Below, one piece after another: positions 989-57,569 of a stretch of DNA of 57,569 bases. The DNA is from a virus (taxonomy: Duplodnaviria > Caudoviricetes). Made by a program: the position numbers and the translations under genes. Under the pieces are notes generated by a model. The model saw nothing but the letters and a program-made list of their open reading frames with translations. It searched no databases and had not been told where the DNA came from. The stretch lies in the IMG/VR virus record IMGVR_UViG_3300029787_000051, positions 1 through 57,569 of that record; one strand, written 5' to 3'. Numbering within the stretch: position 1 is the first letter of the stretch; the number at the start of each line of letters is the position of its first letter.

Positions 989-1053
989 TATATAGTGATA
1001 CTTAAATGAAATGAAAGTATCACGTATATACGTAAACTAGTCCAACGTTGGAC
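988..1053 (+). promoter_or_regulatory. Bulged long hairpin (988-1031) plus palindrome GTCCAACGTTGGAC (1040-1053)
   Basis: gtatata-gtgatactt / aagtatcac-G-tatatac, then gtaaacta and the palindrome; same layout as 55847-55911. Confidence 0.75.
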
Positions 1054-4064: not shown

Positions 4065-4957
4065 GGGCAGTTGCTGAACTTGTAGATGATTATCTTTTAT
4101 CCAGCAACTTCAACGCTTTACGTGACAGAACCAAGCAAGATTATCGCAGGTTTATTAGGCAAGCAATCTGCACAGAGGTAGAGGGCGTACTGCTACGGCA
4201 GCGTCCTCTTACCATGAGTGGCTGCAATGCCAAACGTCACTACGAAATGTGGCTAGATAGAGGTGTGCCTACAGCGAACCATATCTCATCTGTTATCAGG
4301 CTCATCTTCAACTATGGTATTGAGATGGGGTACTGCGATAGCAATCCATTCAAAGCCTTCAAGCGACAGGCTACACATACACGTACTGTAATGTGGGAAC
4401 CCGAAGATGTACGTAAGTTCCTTGATGCAGCGTACTCAAAGTTTCACTGGCGTAATGTAGGTATCATTGCCCATACTGCGTACGATTTGTGTCAACGTGT
4501 GGGTGACATGCGTATGCTTGAGTGGAGTTGGTTTGACTTTGATAAACACGTACTGCACTTACAGCAATCAAAGCGTAGGGCAGAGGTACACCTGCCTATC
4601 AACGATGAACTGTGGGACATGTTGCTACAGCAAGAGGTGGACTATGGCTTCCAGAAATACGTAGCACCGAAACCTAAGTCAGATGGTTGGGGGTTCAAGC
4701 CATACTCTGATCAGTATCTGTCAAGGGTAGCGCGTAAGATTATGCAGGAAGCAGAGCTACCAGATACACTACGTATATCCGACTTGCGTAGGACAGGTAC
4801 AGTTGAGATGGTCGAGGCTGGTGTTCCAATGGGACAGATCATGTCTGTTACAGGACACGCTAACCCACAAAGTGTTAAGCCTTACATGAAGGCTACGTAT
4901 ACGGCAGCTAATGCTGCGTTAACAACTAGAAGGTCCAACGTTGGACCAAAGGAGTAG
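4061..4957 (+). CDS. int: Tyrosine recombinase/integrase
   Basis: Catalytic pattern QRVGD (R), QSKR (K), SDLRRTG (R), TGH, KPY (Y). Confidence 0.9.
   Translation: MRAVAELVDDYLLSSNFNALRDRTKQDYRRFIRQAICTEVEGVLLRQRPLTMSGCNAKRHYEMWLDRGVPTANHISSVIRLIFNYGIEMGYCDSNPFKAFKRQATHTRTVMWEPEDVRKFLDAAYSKFHWRNVGIIAHTAYDLCQRVGDMRMLEWSWFDFDKHVLHLQQSKRRAEVHLPINDELWDMLLQQEVDYGFQKYVAPKPKSDGWGFKPYSDQYLSRVARKIMQEAELPDTLRISDLRRTGTVEMVEAGVPMGQIMSVTGHANPQSVKPYMKATYTAANAALTTRRSNVGPKE
4932..4947. promoter_or_regulatory. Perfect palindrome GGTCCAACGTTGGACC at the int 3' end, abutting the primase SD
   Basis: One of six copies of the motif. Confidence 0.75.
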
Positions 4958-16891: not shown

Positions 16892-19800
16892 TTAATTCTT
16901 GTCTCTCCCTCTCATATAGGGATCAGTCATTAAACCTCTAGGTGTTCTTCCCCTTAGATAGTCTCTGCTTTTTCTTTCTTGTTCTCCATATAACTGGCCC
17001 TTCTCTCGTTTGAAATCATCATACATTTCAAGCCCTCGCCTGTATCCCCCAGAATCCATAATGCTTTGACCAGACTCTCTAAGATAGTCGCTTTCAATAA
17101 GCCTACGTATGTCTTTAGGTATACGCTCAAACTCAAACTTCTCTCCTCTTGAGAATGGCTCACCAGCACTATCACTATCTCCTTGTACTCGTAGAAGCGC
17201 ACGTTCACGCCCGTCATGCATATTTGTTCTAAGCAAAGACTTTAACTCAATAATTTTCTTTTCATTGCTTAGTTCTTTGTACGCTTTTGATTTAATCAGA
17301 GGGAGTGCAGACTGTGTATTATTTTGTCCAGTGTACATCTTTCCCCACCAATCAATTTCCGCATCACCAGTTCCTTGATAAACTTCCCAATGCTTAAGCT
17401 GCAATCGCTTAACCTCTTTTTCAAGAGCGTTAGGCTCGTTCCTGTGTGTCAATCCTAGCAACTGTTTCTCCCACGGGAACCGTGCATATAAAGGATCAGT
17501 TACGAATGTTTTCTCTCCTTGTGTAAACCCACCGCCTCTAGTGGGAGATGTCATTGGTCGTTTCTTTGGTCCAACATCTTCAACGTCAAACCCGAACAAC
17601 CATTTATCTCCTTCTACACCCTTGTCCCTTGAGTAAGCAAGATATCCATTCATTGGATCAGTTACGTGCGGGAAGGAACGTGATGCTTGTTTAGCAAAAT
17701 AGTGCCATCCATTTACATCATTATTGTCGGGTACAATAGAATAGTTCTGTGGGTCAAACTGTGCGTTCATATCCTTTAACATACCAGCGGGTATGGTAAA
17801 AGTATTTAACCAATCTCCTGTTAGCTTACGTACGACTTTAAAATCTTCATCTGTCATATCTTTATGTGTAGCTACATACTCAATAGTTTTATCTAAAAAC
17901 TCTAGTCCACTACCTGTGCGTAGAGTAGACCCCATTACTGCTTTAGCTAAGTTCTCGTAATCAACTTCTCTAAAAACAATCTCTTGGTTCTTAGGTATTC
18001 CCAACCCTTCCAATTGATTTGCTAGTTGTACATTTTCTCTTTGATTAGCATAACGGTATATCTGATCAGCAGCCCATGCATAGATGGCAAATGGGCCTAG
18101 CTGCGCACGTGTATCTACAACTCCTCCAGCAGTATAGTATTCATATGGTCCAGTATTTTCATCACCTGCTCTTGATCTCATCTGCATGGCCCCATATAGC
18201 ATTCCCATACCTGTTACTTGCTTCGACAATATATCTCCTGTTGATCTCTTCGCGCCCGATCTAAAGAAGTCTATTGATCCAATAATAGGAGCGTGAGTAT
18301 ACATAAACTCAAGAGAGTTCATGGTAAATTTAGGAAACGGTATAATCATTGATGCTCCGGGTTGCGAGAAAACTTTAATAAATCCATTAGCAAATTTTCC
18401 AGCAGCAGTTTTTCTTCCAGCATATCCTTTTTGGTACACAAATGAGAGTGTCTCATCTAACGAGTTCTTAATTAATTGAGGATCAAGGTGATTCATTGTG
18501 TGACCGCCTTTAAGAAAGTCCATAAAGGTGTCACCATACTTACTTCTATCTGCTTCGGTAGTATACTTAACATAATTCTTTTTCATTTGATCAGCAAATA
18601 TTGCTCTCTTAAAGGTGTTATCCGAAAGAGTGTTGATGTAATTCATCTTCTTGCCAAGCTCTGCTATGCCAGAGCCAACACCAAAGTTTTCTGCTAGGTC
18701 TGCGTTTGCTCTAAATAGTTGTTGAAAGTTTCCGGGCATCTCTTCGTTAAATATTCTTTTTATAATTTCTGCTTCAGCAGGGTTCACTAGTTCTTTGTAT
18801 ACACGGAAAGGATTGCTTACCCCTACTTTAGGTGCAACATCTTCGCTTGCTCCTAGTGATCTACGTATCCAGTTACCTGTGCCATCTATGCCAGCTTCAA
18901 CAAAGTTATCTAGTGCATAGATAGCTGATCTAAATGCGGCGTTCTCTGTGTTACGAACTGTAGTTGCTAACTGAGAAGTCATTGCACCTAATCGCAGCTT
19001 ATCTACGTTTGTCATAAACTGCCATATGCCTTTATGCACAGATGAACTTTCTCGCGCAGCAAATCTTTTTTGTTCCGCTGTGACTGTACGCATACCTACA
19101 GATTCAAGTGAGGAAAGCCCTTCCATAGTTTCATTAACTAGCTTCTTTTTTAAGGCACTCATCGTTCCTAATTTACTAGCAGCATCATGTAGATCAGCCA
19201 TAAAGAATTTACCTATATCGCCTTGAGTGATGCTATGCTCATCCATTATTCTAGCTATGTCATCTATGCCTAACGCCTCATCGCCGCTTTCCAAAGCACG
19301 TGCTAATGTTTGTGTAATGCGCTCACCCTTTACAGGTGTTACTCTAGACATAATCTTAGCTGATGCAGCAGCAATATTTCTGACTGTCTCAGGGGTCATG
19401 TCTGCCGTTAACTCTAATTGTTTTGCAGCTTGGCCTGTTTCATCTACGTACTCAACTCCTTCATCAGGCTTCTTCTTACGCATAAGGGTATCCATAATCT
19501 TCCCCTTTACACGTTGGCCTGATGCAACTAGAGTCTTATCAAGAGCTTTTTTCTTAGCACTTTCTAATGAGAGTATCTGTCTTTCGATCTCTTTAGCAGT
19601 TGCCCCAAGAGCATCATCTCCAAATACTTCTTTAGTATTATCTATAGCTAAACGCTTGTTCGTTTCTTTGCGTAGGGTACGCATTCCAAATGCTTCTGCT
19701 GTATTAGCACCCTTACTAAATGTAGAACGTGCTGTTAAGCCGCCCCCTAATGCGCCAGCAGTAGCACCTATACCTGCATGAAGGGCAACATCTCCCTTAT

Positions 19801-20602
19801 CTATTTCTTTATTCTGAAGCTCGTCTTGAAGCATCCTTATCTCTGGCGGCACTGGTTCACCAGCGTCTTCTTTCTCTTTAATAAAAGGTTTAATTGTTTC
19901 TTCATCAAAACCTTTACCTGCTATAATCTCACCTTCTTGTCTTTGGGCCTCTTGAAACCCCATTGCAGTACCTTCTATAGCACCTACTACACCAACTCCT
20001 TTTGCAGTAGCTTTATTTCTAGCTTTCTTAAGTGCTAAGTCTTTGACACCTTGTTTGGCAAACTCCATGATTTGTCGTTTACCTAGCTCAAGACCTGTAG
20101 CTACCCCTGCTTTTGTAGCACCTCCAGTAACAGCACTTATCCATGTTGAAGGCGCAGATGCAATTCCCCCTGCATAGTCTTTTACTGTTTCTACATTAAA
20201 CTTCCCTTTTAAATTATTCTCTATCATATCATGCAAGAAGTAGTATCTATTGCGTTGCTCATCCGTACCTGTTTTTAAATGGTACAGATCACGTGCAATA
20301 GTTACTTCATTAACGGTACGGTATCTCCAATGCTCACGCAATTGATCAAGCACAAATTGCGGGTTCTCTAAATCTTTATCAGTATATCCTAAGATTTTAT
20401 TCTCACCGGGAAGTGGTATACCTGATCGTTCTTTTAAAAACTTTCTTCCTTCCTCAAGGAACAGGTTATCCTGTAGTATATCAGGGTCATCTTTTTTATT
20501 TCTTTCTTGCTGCATCCTTTTCATCTGTTCACGCATACGATCTTCTTGGGCAATCTGCCCACCCGTAAATGCTACACTAGATTGGCTACCAGTAATGCCC
20601 AT
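16892..20602 (-). CDS. Large internal virion (ejection) protein
   Basis: 1236 aa, helical, last gene of the structural arm as in podoviruses. Confidence 0.7.
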   Translation of the reverse strand: MGITGSQSSVAFTGGQIAQEDRMREQMKRMQQERNKKDDPDILQDNLFLEEGRKFLKERSGIPLPGENKILGYTDKDLENPQFVLDQLREHWRYRTVNEVTIARDLYHLKTGTDEQRNRYYFLHDMIENNLKGKFNVETVKDYAGGIASAPSTWISAVTGGATKAGVATGLELGKRQIMEFAKQGVKDLALKKARNKATAKGVGVVGAIEGTAMGFQEAQRQEGEIIAGKGFDEETIKPFIKEKEDAGEPVPPEIRMLQDELQNKEIDKGDVALHAGIGATAGALGGGLTARSTFSKGANTAEAFGMRTLRKETNKRLAIDNTKEVFGDDALGATAKEIERQILSLESAKKKALDKTLVASGQRVKGKIMDTLMRKKKPDEGVEYVDETGQAAKQLELTADMTPETVRNIAAASAKIMSRVTPVKGERITQTLARALESGDEALGIDDIARIMDEHSITQGDIGKFFMADLHDAASKLGTMSALKKKLVNETMEGLSSLESVGMRTVTAEQKRFAARESSSVHKGIWQFMTNVDKLRLGAMTSQLATTVRNTENAAFRSAIYALDNFVEAGIDGTGNWIRRSLGASEDVAPKVGVSNPFRVYKELVNPAEAEIIKRIFNEEMPGNFQQLFRANADLAENFGVGSGIAELGKKMNYINTLSDNTFKRAIFADQMKKNYVKYTTEADRSKYGDTFMDFLKGGHTMNHLDPQLIKNSLDETLSFVYQKGYAGRKTAAGKFANGFIKVFSQPGASMIIPFPKFTMNSLEFMYTHAPIIGSIDFFRSGAKRSTGDILSKQVTGMGMLYGAMQMRSRAGDENTGPYEYYTAGGVVDTRAQLGPFAIYAWAADQIYRYANQRENVQLANQLEGLGIPKNQEIVFREVDYENLAKAVMGSTLRTGSGLEFLDKTIEYVATHKDMTDEDFKVVRKLTGDWLNTFTIPAGMLKDMNAQFDPQNYSIVPDNNDVNGWHYFAKQASRSFPHVTDPMNGYLAYSRDKGVEGDKWLFGFDVEDVGPKKRPMTSPTRGGGFTQGEKTFVTDPLYARFPWEKQLLGLTHRNEPNALEKEVKRLQLKHWEVYQGTGDAEIDWWGKMYTGQNNTQSALPLIKSKAYKELSNEKKIIELKSLLRTNMHDGRERALLRVQGDSDSAGEPFSRGEKFEFERIPKDIRRLIESDYLRESGQSIMDSGGYRRGLEMYDDFKREKGQLYGEQERKSRDYLRGRTPRGLMTDPYMRGRDKN

Positions 20603-52208: not shown

Positions 52209-52756
52209 TTTTTCTTTTTAGCCATACCACCATAGAACATGCCTACTTTACGCATGTCATTGTGGCCCATTCGCATACCTTGTGCCATACCCCCATGACC
52301 AAACCCGTGCTTCTTCTTCATCGACTTTTTTAAATTGCCAAGCCGTTTAAGCTCAAATTTTTCAACATCAAGTTTTTCTTTTAATTTTTTAACTTGCGCT
52401 TTGCCATAAGCAGTATCTGAAACGCCAGAGTACTTTGAAATCTGTTCTTCTATCTTATCTATCTTTTTCTGCTGCTTCTCTTGCATCTTAGGTATCTTGT
52501 CATAATGTTCTTTACGCCCCGCCTGTGTCTTAGCAACAGCCGAAATTTCAATTTTATCAGCCCCTCTATCCAGAGACTTTGAGGCATCAGCACTTTTTAA
52601 CTGCTTCATCTCTCCTTCGCCAGCAGGTTGAAGAAGGTTAGCATCTCCTTTACCTTGAGTTTTTCGTAGCTTGCGCATAGCCTCTTGCCGACTAGCACTT
52701 CTAGCAGCCTTACTGCCTCTTGCAGCTTTGGATAATGCTTTGCCCATAACGCCCAT
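52205..52756 (-). CDS. Basic protein with [FYM]xxGG motifs
   Basis: FGHGGMA, MFYGGMAKKKK. Confidence 0.75.
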   Translation of the reverse strand: MGVMGKALSKAARGSKAARSASRQEAMRKLRKTQGKGDANLLQPAGEGEMKQLKSADASKSLDRGADKIEISAVAKTQAGRKEHYDKIPKMQEKQQKKIDKIEEQISKYSGVSDTAYGKAQVKKLKEKLDVEKFELKRLGNLKKSMKKKHGFGHGGMAQGMRMGHNDMRKVGMFYGGMAKKKK

Positions 52757-52767
52757 GTTACTTTTCC

Positions 52768-52950
52768 TTATTCAAAATCTTGAACTAACTCTGATTGATT
52801 AGGTGTGGTATTTTTGCCACACTCACATTCTGGCCCACAAGTGCAGCCTTCTTTCCCACACTTAGGACAGATATCTTTTGGCTCATCGTCATAGAATCCA
52901 AATCTACTCATTTCCATTGCCCTCACAAATAACATTCCAATCATCCACAC
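52768..52950 (-). CDS. Small Cys-rich metallothionein-like protein (start uncertain)
   Basis: CPKCGKEGCTCGPECECG. Confidence 0.6.
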   Translation of the reverse strand: MWMIGMLFVRAMEMSRFGFYDDEPKDICPKCGKEGCTCGPECECGKNTTPNQSELVQDFE

Positions 52951-53011
52951 ACTCCTACAAATGTCACGGCATCAATATAGCGTATCAGGTATACGCCTAT
53001 GATATAGTCAA

Positions 53012-53143
53012 TCATGCCCTGCCATTCTTTATAGACCTAGACTGTGAGGGTGTATACTTTTTTCTATGATTCAGCGGCGGCTTACGATTGCGCCGTTTGA
53101 TAACCCGTTTCCATAAGTTCTTTTCTGGTGCCGTCTTAGCCAT
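53012..53143 (-). CDS. Small basic protein, 43 aa, not in ORF track
   Basis: TAATG coupling; MAKTAPEKNLWKRVIKRRNRKPP... Confidence 0.65.
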   Translation of the reverse strand: MAKTAPEKNLWKRVIKRRNRKPPLNHRKKYTPSQSRSIKNGRA

Positions 53144-53544
53144 TATGCCTTTACTTCTTTTATGATTCTTCCCGAATCATCTAGTTCTTTAACTAGCTCG
53201 ACTCGCATTATGGCATAGAGGTCGTTAGCATATATCTTCCATACCTCTACCTCTAGACCTGCGTAGTCTACGTAAGATAGCATTTTCTTTTCTAGTCGGA
53301 CCCACCTAGCAGGAATATGCCTACCACACTGTTCAAACATATACTTGTTAAATACAGCATTCGCTGCCTCAAAGGATTCAGTATCTGCGGCAGCTAGTTC
53401 TTTGATGGCTTCCATGTTATTGCATGAAGAGTTTATGTACCCAACGTATCGCTTCTCCGATGCTTCTGCATCCTGTACTGTAGCACAATTACTGATAGGC
53501 ATACTAAAGAGAGTAACCACTAAGATTATAAGAAGACGTTTCAT
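53143..53544 (-). CDS. Secreted/periplasmic hypothetical protein
   Basis: N-terminal signal peptide MKRLLIILVVTLF. Confidence 0.7.
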   Translation of the reverse strand: MKRLLIILVVTLFSMPISNCATVQDAEASEKRYVGYINSSCNNMEAIKELAAADTESFEAANAVFNKYMFEQCGRHIPARWVRLEKKMLSYVDYAGLEVEVWKIYANDLYAIMRVELVKELDDSGRIIKEVKA

Positions 53545-53548
53545 AGCA

Positions 53549-53689
53549 TTACTTTTTCTTCTTAGCTACTTTTTTCTTAGCCATTCCACCATACATGTAG
53601 CCACTCTTGCCCTTCATCTTCTTTGCTTTAGCGGCATCAGCCATACCCTTCTTAGTGTACGGGAAACTCTTACCTCCTACTTTTGGCAT
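53549..53689 (-). CDS. Small Lys-rich protein, 46 aa, not in ORF track
   Basis: AAGGAG SD; MPKVGGKSFPYTKKGMADAAKAKKMKGKSGYMYGGMAKKKVAKKKK. Confidence 0.8.
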   Translation of the reverse strand: MPKVGGKSFPYTKKGMADAAKAKKMKGKSGYMYGGMAKKKVAKKKK

Positions 53690-53909
53690 TCTTAACTCCT
53701 TTGCGTTTGTAAGTATTAATTCCTTCAAGCTCCATTGCCTTCTCTATATGAGAAAGAGAATAGCGCACACCCGTATCTGCCTCAATCGCAGCACGGATAT
53801 ACATTACGGAACTATGGGGGATATGTACGGAACCTAATCTATCATTTACGATAGCAGAATAGAATTGTTCTAATAGATTGTCAGACTCCAGTTGTACTGA
53901 TTTTTTCAT
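53670..53909 (-). CDS. Hypothetical protein, first gene of the late arm
   Basis: Downstream of the tandem promoters; HIPHS..Y.RAAIEA..G. Confidence 0.7.
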   Translation of the reverse strand: MKKSVQLESDNLLEQFYSAIVNDRLGSVHIPHSSVMYIRAAIEADTGVRYSLSHIEKAMELEGINTYKRKGVKNAKSRR

Positions 53910-54001
53910 TATTGTCAACTTTTTCTACATATAAGTGACCATGTAAGTGTTTTTTAAAAAGGGTAAGTGATCACTTTAAGTGTAAGCATTAAGTCTTCTT
54001 A

Positions 54002-54044
54002 ATTATACGTATCTAATTATACGTGTCAATAGGTAAAGTGTCAA
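54002..54044 (-). promoter_or_regulatory. Two interleaved consensus sigma70 promoters for the structural arm
   Basis: TTGACA(54044-54039)-N17-TATAAT(54021-54016) and TTGACA(54029-54024)-N16-TATAAT(54007-54002). Confidence 0.85.
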
Positions 54045-54302
54045 ACCCTTTATTTTATATCCGCACTGTTGTATATATATCACAGATATGTGTGTGGTGT
54101 GACATACTTGCAACAGTAGTTATGTACGTTGTCTATGTAGTTAACACTTGATTTTACTGATCTGTGTATTTCTACATATATACGTACGTACTACGGGGGT
54201 GTGGCCCCTGCCTGCCCATGCCATGCGCTAGGCATAATGCGCCCGGATAGCGAGGCAAGCCGTTGTTCCAGCAGAATAAATCTTCGATTTAACAATGGCT
54301 TA

Positions 54303-54316
54303 GTCCAATGTTGGAC
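54303..54316. promoter_or_regulatory. Palindrome variant GTCCAATGTTGGAC
   Basis: 1 mismatch to consensus; flanked by two C-GAA-G mini-hairpins in opposite orientation. Confidence 0.7.
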
Positions 54317-54460
54317 CTGATGCATCGAAGATGCAAAGGATATGCTATCAGTTGTTCTCTGAACAAAGATTATGGATCACGATTTCTACAAAGTAGAGCA
54401 AATGCAAACGTTAGTGCATATCCTTTCATGTTCCATGAACCATACCCCACCCCTTAACAA

Positions 54461-54537
54461 TCATCATTCCTTTCTTTACGTAAGTTAATACCTGAGTTCT
54501 TACGAAGGTATATAACTTACTTGAAAGGAATAGATGA
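54461..54537 (+). promoter_or_regulatory. Long bulged hairpin with GAGTTCTTACGA cap; outer stem covers the SD of the next gene
   Basis: gtaagtta-atacct / aggtat-A-taacttac; attcctttc / gaaaggaat. Confidence 0.75.
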
Positions 54538-54538
54538 A

Positions 54539-54739
54539 ATGGCAACCTTTATCGTAACCAAATCCAATCTCACCGAAGGTGTATTCACCGACATCGAAGA
54601 TGTTGTAGACCACATTGGTTTACCAATAGATCGTGGCGAGTTCACCGCCTTTGGCGATCTTGAGTTCGGCAACGGTTACACCGTTACTGGTCCTACGAAC
54701 CTTCTTTTGGGTTCGGCAATGCGAGTCGATTATTCCTAA
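54539..54739 (+). CDS. Small hypothetical early protein
   Basis: AAGGA SD; ATG 54539. Confidence 0.7.
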   Translation: MATFIVTKSNLTEGVFTDIEDVVDHIGLPIDRGEFTAFGDLEFGNGYTVTGPTNLLLGSAMRVDYS

Positions 54740-54741
54740 CA

Positions 54742-54821
54742 TGGTTGTGAGTAACACCTTGAGTTCTTACGAAAGGTGTTCCTCACTAACCAACACCATT
54801 CAAACTGGTCCAACATTGGAC
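54742..54821 (+). promoter_or_regulatory. Long bulged hairpin with GAGTTCTTACGA cap plus palindrome variant GTCCAACATTGGAC (54808-54821)
   Basis: ggtt-gtgag-t-aacacctt / aaggtgtt-c-ctcac-T-aacc. Confidence 0.78.
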
Positions 54822-54845
54822 GTAACACAAATCGGAGATTTGAAA

Positions 54846-55511
54846 ATGGCTAAGACAACCAACGAACAGAACGAAGTTCTCAACACTCTTGAAGCACAAG
54901 GTGCCGAAATTGCAAAGCAATTCAAGAAAATGGATAGCAGAGATCGTCGTAACGTTACGAAGGATATGCCCCAATACTTGGAGCTTGGCAAACTGTTATC
55001 ACAGTTACGGGGCGAATCGGATGCTGGTCGGATAGCATCTAGCCGTCTGAAGGATTGTGGTATCCACAATATTGACAAGCGGCGTAGGAGCGAAGCTCTA
55101 TGGTTTGCTGATAATGAGAAGTCAGTTAATGACTTCAAGGATAAATCTCGTAAGGGATTCACCAGCATCACTGCTTTGCAGAAAGCATGGAAGGATGCCC
55201 AAGCTGCTGAGTCGGAGACTCAAGAGCCTGAGACTGAGGAAGTCACCGAAGGTGCTAACGAAGGTCTTGCTGAACCTACTGGTTCTGATGCAAACGCTAC
55301 ACCAGTACAGGTAGCGGAATCAGTTATTGCACTCTGCAATAAACATGGCATCGACCTCTCTGAAGTAACAGAGTTACTAATGGAACATGTCTCTGTCATC
55401 GAAGATGAATGCCCATTTGATCCACCATTCTCAATAGAGAATGTTGAGATCACTGGTCCGAAAGATGCGAAAGCATTCGCTAACATGTTCGCCAACAATG
55501 GTCCAATGTAA
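54846..55511 (+). CDS. Hypothetical early protein, 221 aa
   Basis: GGAG SD before ATG 54846; the upstream part of the track ORF overlaps regulatory hairpins. Confidence 0.85.
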   Translation: MAKTTNEQNEVLNTLEAQGAEIAKQFKKMDSRDRRNVTKDMPQYLELGKLLSQLRGESDAGRIASSRLKDCGIHNIDKRRRSEALWFADNEKSVNDFKDKSRKGFTSITALQKAWKDAQAAESETQEPETEEVTEGANEGLAEPTGSDANATPVQVAESVIALCNKHGIDLSEVTELLMEHVSVIEDECPFDPPFSIENVEITGPKDAKAFANMFANNGPM

Positions 55512-55513
55512 AG

Positions 55514-55636
55514 ATGTACATTGGTCGTAACTGGTCACAGCGCAAGGCATGGTTCATGCTTTGCGTTGTCGAACCCCTTGCATTTTCTAGCCTGATGGCT
55601 AGTATTGTTGTGTTCTTTTCTATAATCGGAGATTAA
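55514..55636 (+). CDS. Possible small membrane peptide, 40 aa
   Basis: Fills the gap; hydrophobic C-terminal half. Confidence 0.45.
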   Translation: MYIGRNWSQRKAWFMLCVVEPLAFSSLMASIVVFFSIIGD

Positions 55637-55638
55637 AA

Positions 55639-55863
55639 ATGACCTTGCTTGCTAGAGATATCCCTCGATCATTCACCTTGCGTGGCATAACAGGTCATGG
55701 CAAGAACCGCATAAGAGAACATGGTTCTGTATGGGTTGAGCAACCTTTAAGCATGTCATGGGACAATGGCATATTAGTTACAAGTGTAGAAACACTTGAT
55801 TCACGTTGGATCAAAGAGATAGACGATCCCAATTTCGAGATCGTTAGTGTAAGTGATAGCTGA
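55639..55863 (+). CDS. Hypothetical early protein
   Basis: GGAG SD; GKNRIREHG..W. Confidence 0.8.
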   Translation: MTLLARDIPRSFTLRGITGHGKNRIREHGSVWVEQPLSMSWDNGILVTSVETLDSRWIKEIDDPNFEIVSVSDS

Positions 55864-55911
55864 GTTCTTACGAAGCTATCACGTTACACGTAAACTGGTC
55901 CAACGTTGGAC
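55847..55911 (+). promoter_or_regulatory. Long bulged hairpin with GAGTTCTTACGA cap plus palindrome (55898-55911)
   Basis: gtgtaa-gtgatagct / agctatcac-G-ttacac, then gtaaactg and the palindrome. Confidence 0.8.
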
Positions 55912-55920
55912 TAACATTTT

Positions 55921-56011
55921 GGAAGGCACGGCTGGTGTATGTAATGTCCCTAGAACATTGCAGGTCTACTAGGGTAGGCTAACGCAGGGTTCAATTCCCT
56001 GCCCTTCCACC
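55921..56011 (+). ncRNA. Non-canonical tRNA-like RNA (CUA at anticodon position, long variable arm)
   Basis: GGAAGG/CCTTCC-A-CC acceptor; GCAGGG-TTCAATT-CCCTGC T arm; 8-bp arm with loop CCCTAGA; 7-bp variable arm. Confidence 0.7.
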
Positions 56012-56038
56012 TTAATACATTTTAACGGAGTTAATTAA

Positions 56039-56203
56039 ATGAAACGTTCAGTTCGCAAGGCAAGCAAACGCCGCAATGTCATGGCACATGCTTTGGAAAA
56101 CCGTGCGTTTCAACAACGTGTTGTCCAGCCTGACAAGGGCAAGGGCGCATTCAACAGGCAGAAGGAAAAGGCCAGTGTCAAAAAAGAAATCGACAACGTT
56201 TAA
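56039..56203 (+). CDS. arfA: ArfA-like alternative ribosome-rescue factor, 54 aa, not in ORF track
   Basis: NVMAHALENRAFQQRVVQPDKGKGAFNRQK matches ArfA N....L....FRQRV....KGKGSY.R; GGAG SD. Confidence 0.72.
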   Translation: MKRSVRKASKRRNVMAHALENRAFQQRVVQPDKGKGAFNRQKEKASVKKEIDNV

Positions 56204-56324
56204 CGTTAATCAGAAACGTCTTGACCGTAGTGATTACCGTATGCTACGAAAGGCACGTGATATGCAGCGCAAGAAATTGCGTAAAGCAAAACAGAAAATT
56301 CAATCGTTAACAATCGGAGCGTGA
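56175..56324 (+). CDS. Small basic protein
   Basis: GTG 56175 with AAGGA upstream; 3' part of track ORF 56076-56324. Confidence 0.55.
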   Translation: MSKKKSTTFNVNQKRLDRSDYRMLRKARDMQRKKLRKAKQKIQSLTIGA

Positions 56325-56325
56325 C

Positions 56326-56523
56326 ATGCAAGCTACCTATAAAAATCCTGCCATCGAATCACTGCTGACCAGTATCACTGGTCGTGATCGTGTCGCTACT
56401 GTTGCAAGCAACACTTGCGTAACATGTGACGGTGCTGCTGATACCTTCAAAGATGAGGGATCAAAGCGTGAGTATGCTATCTCTGGCATGTGCCAATCCT
56501 GTCAGGATAGCGTGTTTGGATAG
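56326..56523 (+). CDS. Small zinc-finger protein
   Basis: CVTC...F.DE.S.REY.ISGMCQSCQD.VF; GGAG SD. Confidence 0.8.
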   Translation: MQATYKNPAIESLLTSITGRDRVATVASNTCVTCDGAADTFKDEGSKREYAISGMCQSCQDSVFG

Positions 56524-56537
56524 GTCCAACGTTGGAC
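56524..56537. promoter_or_regulatory. Palindrome GTCCAACGTTGGAC
   Basis: Directly after a TAG stop, upstream of the next SD. Confidence 0.75.
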
Positions 56538-56561
56538 TAACACTTTAACGGAGTTAATCTT

Positions 56562-56837
56562 ATGGCTACTGAAATGAATAACGTAGTTGTTACCCATAGA
56601 GGGTGGACTATTAGTATCACTGACCACATTGGCTTTGGTATACATGGTCCTGATTGCAAGACACGTGAGATCGGTATCTGGAATACTGCTGATAGCCATT
56701 CCGAAATTGATGTTGTCGTATATCATTACGGTGATAGTGCGAAGCAATTGGTACATGCAATTCGCTACGCTCAATGGCAAATCGACAAGACTCTTTTCAA
56801 GAGTTGGATCAAATCAACATTCAAGTTTGGAGCCTGA
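56562..56837 (+). CDS. Hypothetical protein
   Basis: GGAG SD. Confidence 0.75.
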   Translation: MATEMNNVVVTHRGWTISITDHIGFGIHGPDCKTREIGIWNTADSHSEIDVVVYHYGDSAKQLVHAIRYAQWQIDKTLFKSWIKSTFKFGA

Positions 56838-56840
56838 CCT

Positions 56841-57470
56841 ATGCCTAAATCCCCAGTACATATCAGCAAGATGACAGGCAAGCTGGATAGCTTGCGGTCT
56901 ATCAGTACCAACACCGTGACCAACAAGTTTTGCAATGACATGCACAACGCAAAGGCTGAGACTATATGCAAAGTGTGCTACTCTCACGCTATGCTCAATG
57001 GCTTTCGTAAGAATTGCCAAGCATCATTGCAACGCAATAGCGATTTGCTTTCCAAGCAAGTGCTATCGGTTGATGAGTTACCCGTTATCAAAGATAAGGT
57101 GTTCCGTTTCAATGCTCACGGTGAGCTACTCAACATGCGGCACCTACTTAATCTCATTGCCATCGTGCGGCACAATCCTGACACGCTGTTCACGTTGTGG
57201 ACTAAGCGCAAGGATTTGATTAACCGCCTGTTCAAGTATGAGCTATCGGAGAAACCCGATAACATGATACTGATCTTCTCTAACCCGAAGGTTAGTAACA
57301 TCATCCCCGAACATAAAATGCCAAAGCATTTTGACAAGACGTTCAACAACGTGCTTGAGCATGAGGCTGTGCCGTATCAGAACTGCACGGGACAACAATG
57401 CAAGGATTGCCTGTTGTGCTACACTCACGGGACCACTCCAACTATCGTTGAAAAGGTAAAGGCATATTGA
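56841..57470 (+). CDS. Gp88-like Cys-rich (Fe-S/Zn) phage protein
   Basis: C...ICKVCYS, FRFNAHGEL, LWTKR, C....C..C..CY. Confidence 0.7.
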   Translation: MPKSPVHISKMTGKLDSLRSISTNTVTNKFCNDMHNAKAETICKVCYSHAMLNGFRKNCQASLQRNSDLLSKQVLSVDELPVIKDKVFRFNAHGELLNMRHLLNLIAIVRHNPDTLFTLWTKRKDLINRLFKYELSEKPDNMILIFSNPKVSNIIPEHKMPKHFDKTFNNVLEHEAVPYQNCTGQQCKDCLLCYTHGTTPTIVEKVKAY

Positions 57471-57569
57471 TATGAAAAGAATTGTCCATGTTAATCAACA
57501 TGTTATCAAAGCTAACCGTAGGTATTACGAGGAAAAGCCCCCGCTTACTTGTAAGACCTACAAGGATAC
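57438..57569. repeat. Right copy of the 132-bp end overlap
   Basis: Matches 1-132 with 5 mismatches. Confidence 0.95.

Follow-up and report, generated by a model that had tools for sequence, protein, structure and literature searches.

Described hairpin systems and the locus examined

DNA mini-hairpins of the C-GNA-G type have been described at the G4 origin, at ssiA and in the N4 promoters (PMC13037366). The account of N4 places a hairpin with a GGA or GAA loop on the template strand and reports that its 5-7 bp stems extrude at physiological supercoiling (PMC4496689); such hairpins also resist SSB (PMC4496689, PMC13037366). As described there, the N4 vRNAP promoters are three, intergenic, located on the template strand, provided with conserved flanking bases and served by a giant virion polymerase. 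The array reported here resembles them in the 3-nt GGA/GAA loop closed by C-G and in comparable stem size; unlike them, it comprises dozens of hairpins per 2 kb, mostly within genes or around Shine-Dalgarno sequences, on the non-template strand. The G4-type complementary-strand origin and RSF1010 ssiA likewise carry a very stable mini-hairpin class on the strand to be primed (PMC13037366), a setting comparable to that of the present array, which lies on the would-be displaced or lagging-strand template, adjoins the GC-skew minimum and belongs to a phage encoding a primase and a helicase of its own. However, the described G4 and ssiA signals consist of one to three hairpins in the non-coding origin of an ssDNA replicon, whereas the present array is long, runs through coding sequence and is part of a podovirus-like dsDNA genome.

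A published model for proteobacteria (Lavi et al. 2018, PMC5941160) explains the conservation of perfect inverted repeats by template switching; there as here, perfect repeats are over-abundant and extra conserved, and imperfect ones are not favoured. The repeats of that report are diffuse and mild across bacterial chromosomes, whereas the present excess amounts to 4-10 fold, depends on both the size and the sequence of the loop (GAA/AAA/GGA) and is confined to one conserved module. The first-step-transfer injection-stop region of T5 is reported to contain inverted repeats and palindromes whose order is conserved among relatives (bioRxiv 10.1101/866236) and is a first-entering or early segment crowded with inverted repeats, to which the present one may be comparable; the T5 elements, according to the same account, are long, non-coding and DnaA-box-associated, whereas those studied here are minimal and overlap genes. 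The words hairpin, inverted repeat and promoter are absent from the main text of the HMO-2011-type genomics paper, and a full-text literature search for phage genomes enriched in triloops or mini-hairpins gave no relevant description among the papers listed.

The window, i.e., the whole stretch of 57,569 nucleotides that was analysed, is an HMO-2011-type roseophage genome, both record ends being an assembly overlap. HMO-2011-type phages are among the most abundant marine virus groups and are dominant in marine viromes. The rightward operon consists of a leader followed by ORFs A-H on the + strand, and the cumulative GC skew, which is confounded with gene orientation, has its minimum at about 54 kb. 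The phage possesses a primase-like ORF and a DnaB-like helicase, both annotated in the cultured phage CRP-345. The consensus sigma-70 promoters of the divergent region are two perfect ones, both leftward; a sigma-70-like promoter for the rightward operon was looked for and not found. When the large ORFs were scanned against PHROG and Pfam, no RNA polymerase family emerged. The look-alikes proposed by a language model for the ORFs of 1236 aa and 1056 aa include no polymerase, and a six-frame PF00940 search gave no match, as in the control genomes; the largest ORF without an assigned function is similar to polyvalent virion proteins (LPD38/LPD3). ORF B has 62 homologues, an invariant IDKRRRSEALW motif, a predicted helical fold and a disordered acidic linker (residues 125-148); a structural match was sought and none was found, nor was a relation to lambda O or to any solved fold detected.

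Triloop hairpins of the rightward operon

Thirteen C-GNA-G triloops, all with perfect 4-6 bp stems and either GAA or GGA in the loop, lie in positions 54277-56557, 12 on the + strand and one on the - strand (Table 1), with a predicted DNA folding energy ranging from -1.0 to -4.7 kcal/mol. All had been listed in the preliminary description, whose coordinates and strands proved exact; the six other 6-7 bp triloop stems named in it (54352, 54425, 54671, 54908, 55054 and 56367) are present as well. Its estimate that fewer than one per 2.3 kb would arise by chance is borne out by 2000 dinucleotide shuffles of the same segment, with a mean of 0.11 on the + strand (maximum 3, against the 12 observed) and of 0.09 on the - strand. 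Over the whole window, 24 C-GNA-G hairpins were counted on the + strand and five on the - strand (shuffle means 1.6 and 1.9), and the ten best 2281-nt segments of a sliding count all begin within 52751-55001. The 16 cases found in the ~55 kb outside 54277-56557, eight of which are on the + strand in + strand genes at 1-16 kb, are only scattered, as previously stated, yet still above chance.

Table 1. Coordinates of hairpins, palindromes and ORFs in and around the rightward operon.
Feature	Position	Strand	Basis or remark
Zone rich in short perfect inverted repeats with 3-nt (fewer 4-nt) spacers, leader and ORFs A-H	54250..57470	+	triloop density, synonymous shuffles
Leader hairpin, 6-bp stem, GAA loop, 11 nt left of leader palindrome	54277..54291	-	identical in L074
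Leader copy of 14-bp palindrome (GTCCAAYRTTGGAC family)	54303..54316	.	motif count
Leader hairpin tgcatc-GAA-gatgca, immediately right of palindrome	54321..54335	+	-4.7 kcal/mol as DNA; identical in L074
Three more leader triloops (54352 TCT, 54385 AAA, 54425 TTC loops)	54352..54439	+	triloop scan
ORF A (66 aa)	54539..54739	+	C-GNA-G at 54571 (cacc-GAA-ggtg) and 54591 (acatc-GAA-gatgt), both loops in-frame Glu
Palindrome copy upstream of ORF B	54808..54821	.	motif count
ORF B Shine-Dalgarno GGAG within caaatc-GGA-gatttg	54828..54842	+	first loop G 12 nt before ATG
ORF B (221 aa), conserved, function unassigned	54846..55511	+	C-GNA-G at 54868, 55088, 55208, 55244, 55396
ORF C Shine-Dalgarno within taatc-GGA-gatta	55623..55635	+	loop-to-ATG spacing
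ORF D (ArfA-like) Shine-Dalgarno within ttaac-GGA-gttaa	56022..56034	+	loop-to-ATG spacing
ORF G Shine-Dalgarno within ttaac-GGA-gttaa, 7 nt past palindrome copy	56545..56557	+	loop-to-ATG spacing
Other palindrome copies	55898-55911, 56524-56537, 1040-1053, 4933-4946	.	motif count

Seven of the 13 hairpins are embedded in ORFs (two in ORF A, five in ORF B), and no internal C-GNA-G hairpin occurs in ORFs C, D, F, G and H. Chance or the composition of acidic proteins rich in I-E-D, T-E-G, N-E-V and S-E-A might be invoked to explain them, given that an in-frame GAA codon forms the loop in six of the seven and that ORF B is Glu-rich. This explanation is refuted: protein-preserving shuffles, which the preliminary description had named as capable of overturning its claim, do not match the counts, because synonymous-codon shuffles of ORFs A and B yield a mean of 0.31 (maximum 4, none of the 3000 reaching the seven observed), and codon-order permutation yields 0.09. 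For ORF A considered separately, two hairpins stand against 0.11 expected (P 0.002, synonymous shuffles). Moreover, the excess holds in 39/45 relatives, and it is equally found in the non-coding leader.

These C-GNA-G hairpins are only part of a broader excess, which comprises perfect stems of 4-8 bp closed by loops of 3 nt. Triloop stems of at least 5 bp reach 7.6 per kb in 54001-57569 vs 1.0 per kb in the - strand genes, and 4-nt loops 3.9 vs 1.2 per kb; no enrichment of 5-7 nt loops was detected in the same comparison. Compared with synonymous shuffles, ORF B contains 12 triloop stems vs 1.9 expected (z 7.7), its non-C-GNA-G triloops being at 54908, 55054, 55324 and 55364, and ORF H contains 7 vs 1.2 (z 5.5). 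Longer RNA-like hairpins sharing a conserved 12-nt loop are present in the intergenic regions.

As the preliminary description had not remarked, four of the five GGA loops are the Shine-Dalgarno sequences that serve ORFs B, C, D and G; their first G precedes the ATG by 11-12 nt, and the fifth loop (55208) is internal to ORF B. In the relatives, 51/75 GGA loops are located 9-12 nt before a start codon. A Shine-Dalgarno sequence embedded in a hairpin was observed at 8/31 + strand starts vs 0/30 - strand starts, and the hairpins surrounding these sequences must affect the mRNA as well.

The 14-bp palindrome is represented by six copies in the window vs 0.73 matches expected, and its family counts 130 copies in 46 sources. 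At the leader palindrome the polarity of the loops reverses, from 3 purine-rich and 10 pyrimidine-rich loops on the left to 15 and 9 on the right, albeit on small numbers; to the right, the stable purine-rich loop (GAA > AAA > GGA, closed by C-G or T-A) is on the + strand. The in-frame loops are GAA in 42% of cases vs 6.5% in codon usage, a sense-strand bias that is partly coding, GAA representing 24% of the loops of hairpins from protein-preserving shuffles.

The array in related phages

The array accompanies ORF B: 39 of 45 dereplicated relatives are individually significant (P<=0.01) in the ORF B gene, six show no significant hairpin excess in it, and the array is absent from 70 loci without ORF B. 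Where present, it does not extend beyond about -500 to +1500 nt relative to the start of that gene. A lack of enrichment in relatives, the other outcome said to count against the preliminary description, was not what emerged, most of the ORF-B-carrying relatives sharing the array, also across an ORF B identity of only 36-44%. Altogether, the ORF B genes of the 45 relatives harbor 473 triloop stems vs 119.5±10.4 expected and 95 C-GNA-G hairpins vs 8.2 expected; in the mostly non-coding leader, triloops number 122 vs 17 (~7-fold), and loops of 4-7 nt are only ~2-fold enriched. The + strand C-GNA-G hairpins are restricted to about -500 to +2000 of the ORF B start, with a peak of 5.6 per kb; the ~28 kb covered at -2750 to -750, beyond this limit on the upstream side, contain none, and no mirror array on the - strand was found left of the leader. 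The cultured phages CRP-345 and CRP-1 exhibit a milder form at the same position. The relatives also carry a hairpin oriented like that at 54277 to the left of their own leader palindrome, and a hairpin-flanked 14-bp palindrome in the disordered linker of ORF B. The latter recalls the lambda ori, a dyad-symmetric cis element lying within gene O, where this early gene codes for a linker; the lambda iterons, however, are sequence-conserved protein-binding sites, whereas the stems described here vary freely and their structure is kept.

The comparison of the window with a close relative (L074, 92% identical) revealed that 1/84 stem bases of the C-GNA-G hairpins are changed vs 13.5% elsewhere (p 2e-4), and that loop bases change at the background rate. 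Both hairpins of ORF A are intact in L074, where flanking synonymous sites differ; in its leader, the stem at 54352 is kept with a changed loop, the hairpin at 54385 has turned into C-GAA-G and that at 54425 displays two compensatory double changes. Seven helices were followed through 46 ORF B genes; their double-change cells number 121 vs 59.9 after shuffling (0/500 shuffles reaching 121), and 76.8% of the cells are paired vs 31-47% when the partners are slid. The hairpin positions turn over, single sites being present in only 15-25 of the 46 genes. The excess persists within the invariant protein motif of ORF B, and in its linker the amino-acid covariation follows the paired arm changes, even non-synonymous ones.

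The excess is real, specific for 3-nt loops, restricted to one module and common to the relatives; it is maintained where the arms are conserved and also where they change in pairs. With stems conserved, loops drifting and arms changing in compensating pairs, even non-synonymously, the earlier expression of a second code overlaid on the ORFs is a fair one. Short repeats conserved as structures point to an undescribed DNA-level signal lying over genes.

Possible nature and role of the array

Perfect stems of five pairs number 315 vs 44 expected and those of six pairs 179 vs 18 (7-10 fold), whereas stems with one internal G·T number 26 vs 51.9 and 29 vs 22.4, respectively (0.5-1.3 times), and do no better than those with A·C or other mismatches. 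Because perfect Watson-Crick stems are enriched and G·T stems are not, DNA is favoured over RNA, in agreement with the early guess of ssDNA or cruciform signals. The most probable reading, to which a probability of roughly 0.4 can be assigned, is that the hairpins are under selection on the + strand and act when this strand is unpaired. Arms of 4-8 bp around a 3-nt spacer would be maintained by evolution as DNA hairpins over the first ~2 kb of the rightward operon, in leader, ribosome-binding sites and coding sequence alike, in ORF-B-carrying HMO-2011-type phages, the GGAG of Shine-Dalgarno sequences and the GAA codons for Glu being just the cheapest way to encode the loops. The unpaired + strand might be the displaced non-template strand behind RNA polymerase, the lagging-strand template adjoining an origin at the divergent region, or the strand of mini-cruciforms extruded by supercoiling; that it would be the lagging or displaced strand we infer from GC skew and gene orientation only. 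The hairpins could then be landmarks that resist SSB and direct priming, the loading of a helicase or the opening of an origin, with a chemistry like that of the G4-type and ssiA priming signals and of the N4 promoters, though most probably not as N4-type promoters. More tentatively, the array may be a structural DNA code superimposed on protein-coding sequence, made of extrudable or SSB-resistant mini-hairpins under selection so strong that it dictates codon choice, Shine-Dalgarno context and amino-acid covariation in a conserved early protein. Such a code would delimit a zone where initiation depends on hairpins (for replication priming or loading, or for supercoil-gated activation), with ORF B maybe as the cognate factor. 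On the other side, at least 30 sites per 2 kb far exceed the needs of any known priming origin, which counts against this best reading, and the one-sided array counts against a simple bidirectional origin, because a mirror array on the - strand would be predicted.

A rather unlikely alternative is that the array is a mutational footprint, in which a region often single-stranded undergoes intrastrand template switching that perfects the repeats and makes the arms evolve in concert, so that the hairpins would reflect the exposure of ssDNA and would not be a signal. The restriction of the excess to perfect stems, to the exclusion of wobble and single-mismatch ones, agrees with it, as do the turnover of hairpin positions between lineages and the paired arm changes, which template switching could yield without function, and the mechanism has a published model in proteobacteria (PMC5941160). 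However, the 4-10 fold excess is tightly regional and recurs at the same module despite the divergence of ORF B, the loops are biased towards the most stable DNA loops, and the C-GNA-G stems are ~10-fold less changed than their surroundings in L074; moreover, the excess persists in the invariant motif and forces covariation on the linker. A pure bias would have to prevail over the purifying selection that acts on a conserved protein.

Structure at the mRNA level appears unlikely as the main explanation. Hairpins of the sense transcript could tune translation initiation, ribosome speed or RNase/Rho access, or bind an RNA-binding protein (e.g., by CsrA-like recognition of GGA loops), in keeping with the 12/13 hairpins on the sense strand, the GGA loops preceding start codons in the window and in the relatives, the bias of hairpin-embedded Shine-Dalgarno sequences towards + strand starts and the longer intergenic hairpins. 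Stable RNA hairpins, however, are tetraloops, whereas 3-nt loops are preferred here over 4-nt ones; G·U-compatible stems are unenriched, unlike in a regulatory RNA hairpin, and the leader hairpins occur in both orientations, with the flip at the palindrome and, at 54277, the stable loop on the antisense strand. The preferred class is, in addition, the one described as stabilised in DNA (PMC13037366). The idea of the preliminary description that the hairpins might drive non-sigma-70 early transcription, as N4-type promoters or through a related hairpin-reading polymerase, was not borne out and is highly improbable. The stems do match those of N4 in length, and the loops in size (3 nt) and class (GGA/GAA); the sigma-70-like promoters found are only leftward, and one hairpin (54277), ahead of the operon, does occupy the template strand; but 12/13 hairpins are on the non-template strand and would drive antisense RNA, 7/13 are within ORFs, the scans of the large ORFs revealed no RNA polymerase, the largest unknown ORF resembling virion proteins instead, and three such promoters, not dozens, are described for N4 (PMC4496689).

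If it is only a template-switch footprint, the array would be an unusually strong regional example in nature and a marker of single-stranded phage DNA in vivo. If it is functional, it would represent a rare clear case of nucleic-acid structure overriding both protein-sequence and synonymous-site evolution over a whole gene, and the known occurrence of C-GNA-G mini-hairpins would be broadened from the few single sites described so far (G4 origin, ssiA, three N4 promoters; PMC13037366) to an array of dozens. It would also offer a testable handle on replication start or middle transcription in HMO-2011-type phages, which are without a recognisable RNA polymerase or initiator, and the cultured relatives CRP-345 and CRP-1 make the array experimentally accessible.

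Hairpins of the rightward region

All 13 C-GNA-G hairpins (perfect stems of at least 4 bp with a 3-nt GNA loop and a C-G closing pair, named by their start coordinate) listed in the preliminary description were recovered from the window, twelve on the + strand and one on the - strand, and the six other triloop stems of 6-7 bp reported with them are likewise present. When folded with DNA parameters, 13/13 form as predicted, at -1.0 to -4.7 kcal/mol. The rough chance estimate of less than one per 2.3 kb held: dinucleotide shuffling of 54277-56557 (2000 rounds) gave a mean of 0.11 (maximum 3) on the + strand and 0.09 on the - strand. The whole window contains 24 C-GNA-G hairpins on the + strand and five on the - strand (shuffle means 1.6 and 1.9, respectively), and the ten richest 2.3-kb windows of the suggested sliding count all begin within 52751-55001.

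The internal hairpins of ORFs A and B, the first two genes of the rightward series A-H, are given in the table below; in 6/7 of them, the loop is an in-frame GAA codon. Protein-preserving shuffles, chosen beforehand as refutation, fail to reproduce this count: when codons were swapped within each ORF, keeping protein and codon usage (synonymous shuffles), the mean for A and B together was 0.31 and 0/3000 reached seven, and permuting the codon order of the same ORFs gave a mean of 0.09. The tripeptides I-E-D, T-E-G, N-E-V and S-E-A therefore do not account for the hairpins. ORFs C, D, F, G and H contain no internal C-GNA-G hairpin. Of the five loops that read GGA, four (54828, 55623, 56022 and 56545) coincide with the GGAG Shine-Dalgarno of the gene that follows (B, C, D and G, respectively), the first loop G being located 11-12 nt upstream of the ATG; according to crude start calls, the Shine-Dalgarno is embedded in a hairpin at 8/31 + strand starts vs 0/30 - strand starts. 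Among the sequencing runs listed for this DNA, none was RNA. Reads of four DNA-contig runs differ from the window at 163 places; of the 40 places listed, one (55088, seen in a single run) hits a C-GNA-G hairpin, too few for a test at population level. CcrM sites (GANTC) were discarded as a general explanation, being present in one stem only (55208).

The feature is broader than the C-GNA-G list. The table reports the density of triloop stems with any loop sequence, counting every perfect stem of 5 bp or more that encloses exactly 3 nt; the hot zone also has a 3-fold excess of 4-nt loops and no excess of 5-7-nt loops. Compared with synonymous shuffles, triloop stems number 12 vs 1.9 in ORF B (z 7.7) and 7 vs 1.2 in ORF H (z 5.5), with z values of 3-4 in several other + strand genes and most - strand genes at expectation. 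An Rfam scan of 53500-57569 at a permissive threshold returned nothing above gathering scores.

Coordinates of the features discussed in the text
Feature	Position	Strand	Remarks
Terminal repeat	1-132; 57438-57569		96% identity
+ strand genes	1-16.4 kb; 54.5-57.5 kb	+	integrase, primase-like ORF, DnaB-like helicase, DNA polymerase A, ribonucleotide reductase, PstS-like protein included; 2.2 triloop stems per kb in 1-16.4 kb
Minus-strand genes	16.5-53.9 kb	-	portal, large terminase and tail proteins included; 1.0 triloop stems per kb
Hot zone	54001-57569		7.6 triloop stems per kb
1236-aa ORF	16892-20602	-	closes the virion module
Two overlapping perfect sigma-70 promoters	54002-54044	-	TTGACA, 16-17 nt, TATAAT; 12/12 matches
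ORF A	54539-54739	+	2 internal C-GNA-G hairpins
ORF B	54846-55511	+	5 internal C-GNA-G hairpins
ORF D	56039-56203	+	54 aa; Pfam ArfA
ORF H	56841-57470	+	
14-bp palindrome GTCCAAYRTTGGAC, perfect or near-perfect	1040-1053; 4933-4946; 54303-54316; 54808-54821; 55898-55911; 56524-56537		
Long hairpins, 12-nt loop GAGTTCTTACGA	54488-54511; 54753-54780; 55853-55882	+	stems differ, loop identical
Fourth long hairpin	~990-1035		like design, other loop
tRNA-like cloverleaf	55921-56008	+	long variable arm; anticodon CTA

Gene layout and neighbouring elements

The window is a complete IMG/VR virus record (57,569 bp). Since its two ends overlap, the + strand genes starting at ~54.5 kb run on at position 1; the overlap is probably due to self-closure of the contig via two slightly different population variants. 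The cultured Roseobacter phages CRP-345 and CRP-1, built on the same gene architecture as the window, each have an ORF B homologue as gene 1, and CRP-345 is placed among the HMO-2011-type isolates in PMC9038755. On these grounds, the window is an HMO-2011-type genome, as had been guessed. The cumulative GC-skew minimum at ~54 kb is confounded with gene orientation. The sigma-70 promoter pair faces leftward, into small - strand ORFs, and no comparable promoter was found in a search for one serving the rightward operon.

ORF B, whose 62 homologues share the invariant motif IDKRRRSEALW, is a genuine protein and a conserved one; the closest proteins (P0001-P0003) are 96%, 89% and 60% identical. 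ORF B matches no Pfam family and, at E<=0.001, no PDB structure in Foldseek; the best VIA-align hit (Z 5.5) is inside the noise for helical proteins, and the predicted fold gave no functional lead.

The six palindrome copies occur in the + strand gene region only, usually directly before a ribosome-binding site. In 46 sources, the family comprises 130 copies: 24 in leaders, 33 in the linker-coding part of ORF B, where in relatives the palindrome encodes S-N-V-G, and 73 downstream. In the leader of the window, it is flanked by hairpins 54277 (-) and 54321 (+), and the order hairpin, palindrome, hairpin (54277, 54303, 54321) is conserved in relatives. The numbers of + strand loops are small: to the left of the leader palindrome, 10 are pyrimidine-rich vs 3 purine-rich; to the right, 15 are purine-rich vs 9; around the other copies, purine-rich loops lie on both sides. 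The palindrome is likely to be an operator, an activator site or a structural element; its TTGGAC half-site was rejected as a sigma-70 element, as the spacing would place the start past the ATG.

The long hairpins sharing GAGTTCTTACGA are located between ORFs, with perfect cores of 6-9 bp and, by eye, imperfect stems of up to ~14 bp; the palindrome follows two of the three. Lacking a T-run, they are not classical terminators; a role in processing or protein binding is conceivable. The cloverleaf, whose anticodon would read amber TAG (the stop of 10/60 crudely called ORFs), is missed by ARAGORN at default and called at a relaxed threshold; its RNA fold reaches -37.2 kcal/mol (z -2.9). It lies directly upstream of ORF D, whose match to Pfam ArfA (alternative ribosome-rescue factor A) exceeds the curated cut-off, with E 4.5e-7. 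A phage ribosome-rescue factor beside a suppressor-like tRNA is an unusual arrangement.

Distribution and conservation in relatives

A scan of viral contigs with ORF B alone retrieved no relatives. A set based on ORF H was then counted (70 loci fetched, 65 with near-complete matches, H 35-64% identical), and no hairpin enrichment was found upstream of H in these 65 loci. None of the 70 carries an ORF B homologue, and hence they do not represent the equivalent region; CRP-5, which is among the 70, is a member of a different family and has no such hairpin zone. In the loci L046-L070, C-GNA-G hairpins of the - strand cluster between ~+2000 and +3000, counted from the ORF H homologue (14 and 16 hairpins in two 500-nt bins, ~0.5 per kb), which probably reflects one or two sites conserved within those unrelated phages.

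Metagenome contigs searched with an ORF B alignment yielded 80 loci. Excluding the close relative L074, the density of C-GNA-G hairpins in the remaining 79 (255.6 kb) is 1.21 per kb for the + strand vs 0.20 for the - strand. After removal of L074 and of one partial match, the other 78 were dereplicated to 45, in which + strand C-GNA-G hairpins are limited to about -500 to +2000 nt from the ORF B start, with a peak of 5.6 per kb at +250 to +500; the ~28 kb sampled further upstream contain none. In their hot zones (74.6 kb, stems of at least 4 bp, compared with dinucleotide shuffles), 3-nt loops number 857 vs 256, 4-nt loops 414 vs 244 and 5-nt loops 373 vs 245; the commonest types are C-GAA-G (102 vs 0.7), C-AAA-G (90 vs 2.1), T-GAA-A (78 vs 3.3) and C-GGA-G (38 vs 0.2). 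The synonymous test, which the preliminary description had called for in relatives, revealed enrichment at the equivalent region: the 45 ORF B genes contain 473 triloop stems vs 119.5±10.4 and 95 C-GNA-G hairpins vs 8.2, and 39/45 are individually significant (P<=0.01), 6/45 not. The cultured phages carry a milder form of the array. In CRP-345, triloops reach 13 per kb over the first 2 kb vs 2-5 elsewhere, with all six + strand C-GNA-G hairpins within the first 3.2 kb of 54.7 kb, and CRP-1 has 16 triloops in the first kb vs ~4 elsewhere. Since the array travels with ORF B and peaks inside it, ORF B is the obvious candidate partner of the array.

L074 is 91.7% identical to 52814-55236 of the window. 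Seven of the eight C-GNA-G hairpins covered are intact, and 55088 has lost its outer pair; differences affect 1/84 C-GNA-G stem positions vs 13.5% of positions elsewhere (Fisher p 2e-4). The loops, taken over every triloop whose stem has 5 bp or more, have changed at close to the background rate (5/36 positions). As for the other stems, the loops of 54385 and 54908 have changed from AAA to GAA, 54352 keeps its stem with an altered loop, 54425 has two pairs altered by compensating double substitutions, and 55054 is broken.

Among the 46 ORF B genes, hairpins sit repeatedly at the same codons but are built with different stems (e.g., cagc/gctg, cacc/ggtg, caac/gttg and cact/agtg around one GAA), so that the flanking amino acids co-vary. 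A formal count on seven helices of alignment A2 of these genes, to be read bearing in mind that the structure was taken from the same sequences and that the rows are related, gave 76.8% paired cells (shuffled 70.7%; 31-47% with partners slid) and 121 cells changed on both sides (shuffled 59.9), each of the two values being reached in 0/500 shuffles. Individual sites are found in only 15-25/46 genes; thus, hairpin positions turn over between lineages. In the ORF B linker of one relative (L077, ~1100-1180; A2 columns 440-520), there are about four tandem 12-nt units, each with a cacc-GAA-ggt hairpin, which shows that hairpin units can multiply in tandem within the linker.

Probable DNA-level constraint and possible roles

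In the 46 ORF B genes, perfect stems exceed the synonymous expectation (315 vs 44 with five pairs; 179 vs 18 with six), stems with one internal G·T do not (26 vs 51.9; 29 vs 22.4), nor do those with one internal A·C (38 vs 38.6; 15 vs 13.7), and other single-mismatch stems are close to expectation. The lack of G·T enrichment implies that wobble pairs are not tolerated, in contrast to functional RNA helices; a structure acting in the mRNA is accordingly considered unlikely. In the mostly non-coding leader, 3-nt loops number 122 vs 17 and loops of 4-7 nt are only ~2-fold enriched. GAA accounts for 42% of in-frame loops vs 6.5% of codon usage, 24% being reached already in protein-preserving shuffles. 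The favoured loops are those reported in PMC13037366 for exceptionally stable DNA mini-hairpins. The constraint most likely acts on DNA, through selection of hairpins or cruciforms or through arm-to-arm template switching. The latter has been put forward to explain why perfect repeats are conserved in proteobacteria (PMC5941160), and template switching by itself could mimic selection, which makes a functionless mutational footprint possible, if doubtful. Given the shuffles, chance is practically negligible.

The parallel with phage N4 drawn in the preliminary description extends to the physical chemistry of the hairpins. According to PMC4496689, N4 has three promoters, read by the virion polymerase helped by SSB, with a GGA/GAA-loop hairpin on the template strand centred at -11. 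In the window, 12/13 hairpins are on the non-template strand and 7/13 inside ORFs, and a search of the large ORFs found no polymerase family; membership of the N4 type is thus unsupported, and promoters of this kind are very improbable. For 54277, the base 11 nt downstream of the loop was inspected by eye as an N4-like start, with no obvious fit. A six-frame search with PF00940 gave no match, the control genomes being silent too. The 1236-aa ORF resembles polyvalent virion proteins: its language-model look-alikes carry LPD38, LPD3 or MuF-C domains, typical of large polyvalent proteins, and the likeness (score 0.93) is taken as a lead only.

The reading we favour, with a probability of about 0.4, is that of a selected DNA-level array acting when the + strand is unpaired. 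The very dense, one-sided distribution counts against it, as do the finding of no mirror array left of the leader and the mimicry by template switching noted above. The hairpin type itself is known; in the main texts covered by a literature search, there was no conserved array of dozens of hairpins over coding sequence and ribosome-binding sites, tied to one putative early gene. That the array is a distinct, functional "structure code" is proposed only tentatively. Three settings might leave the + strand unpaired: its displacement as the non-template strand, its use as lagging-strand template close to an origin in the divergent region, and the extrusion of mini-cruciforms. From the DNA-level structure, we infer that the hairpins, as landmarks resistant to SSB, may guide priming, the loading of helicase or opening, an action that would resemble the model of transcription-primed initiation at the primary origin of T7.
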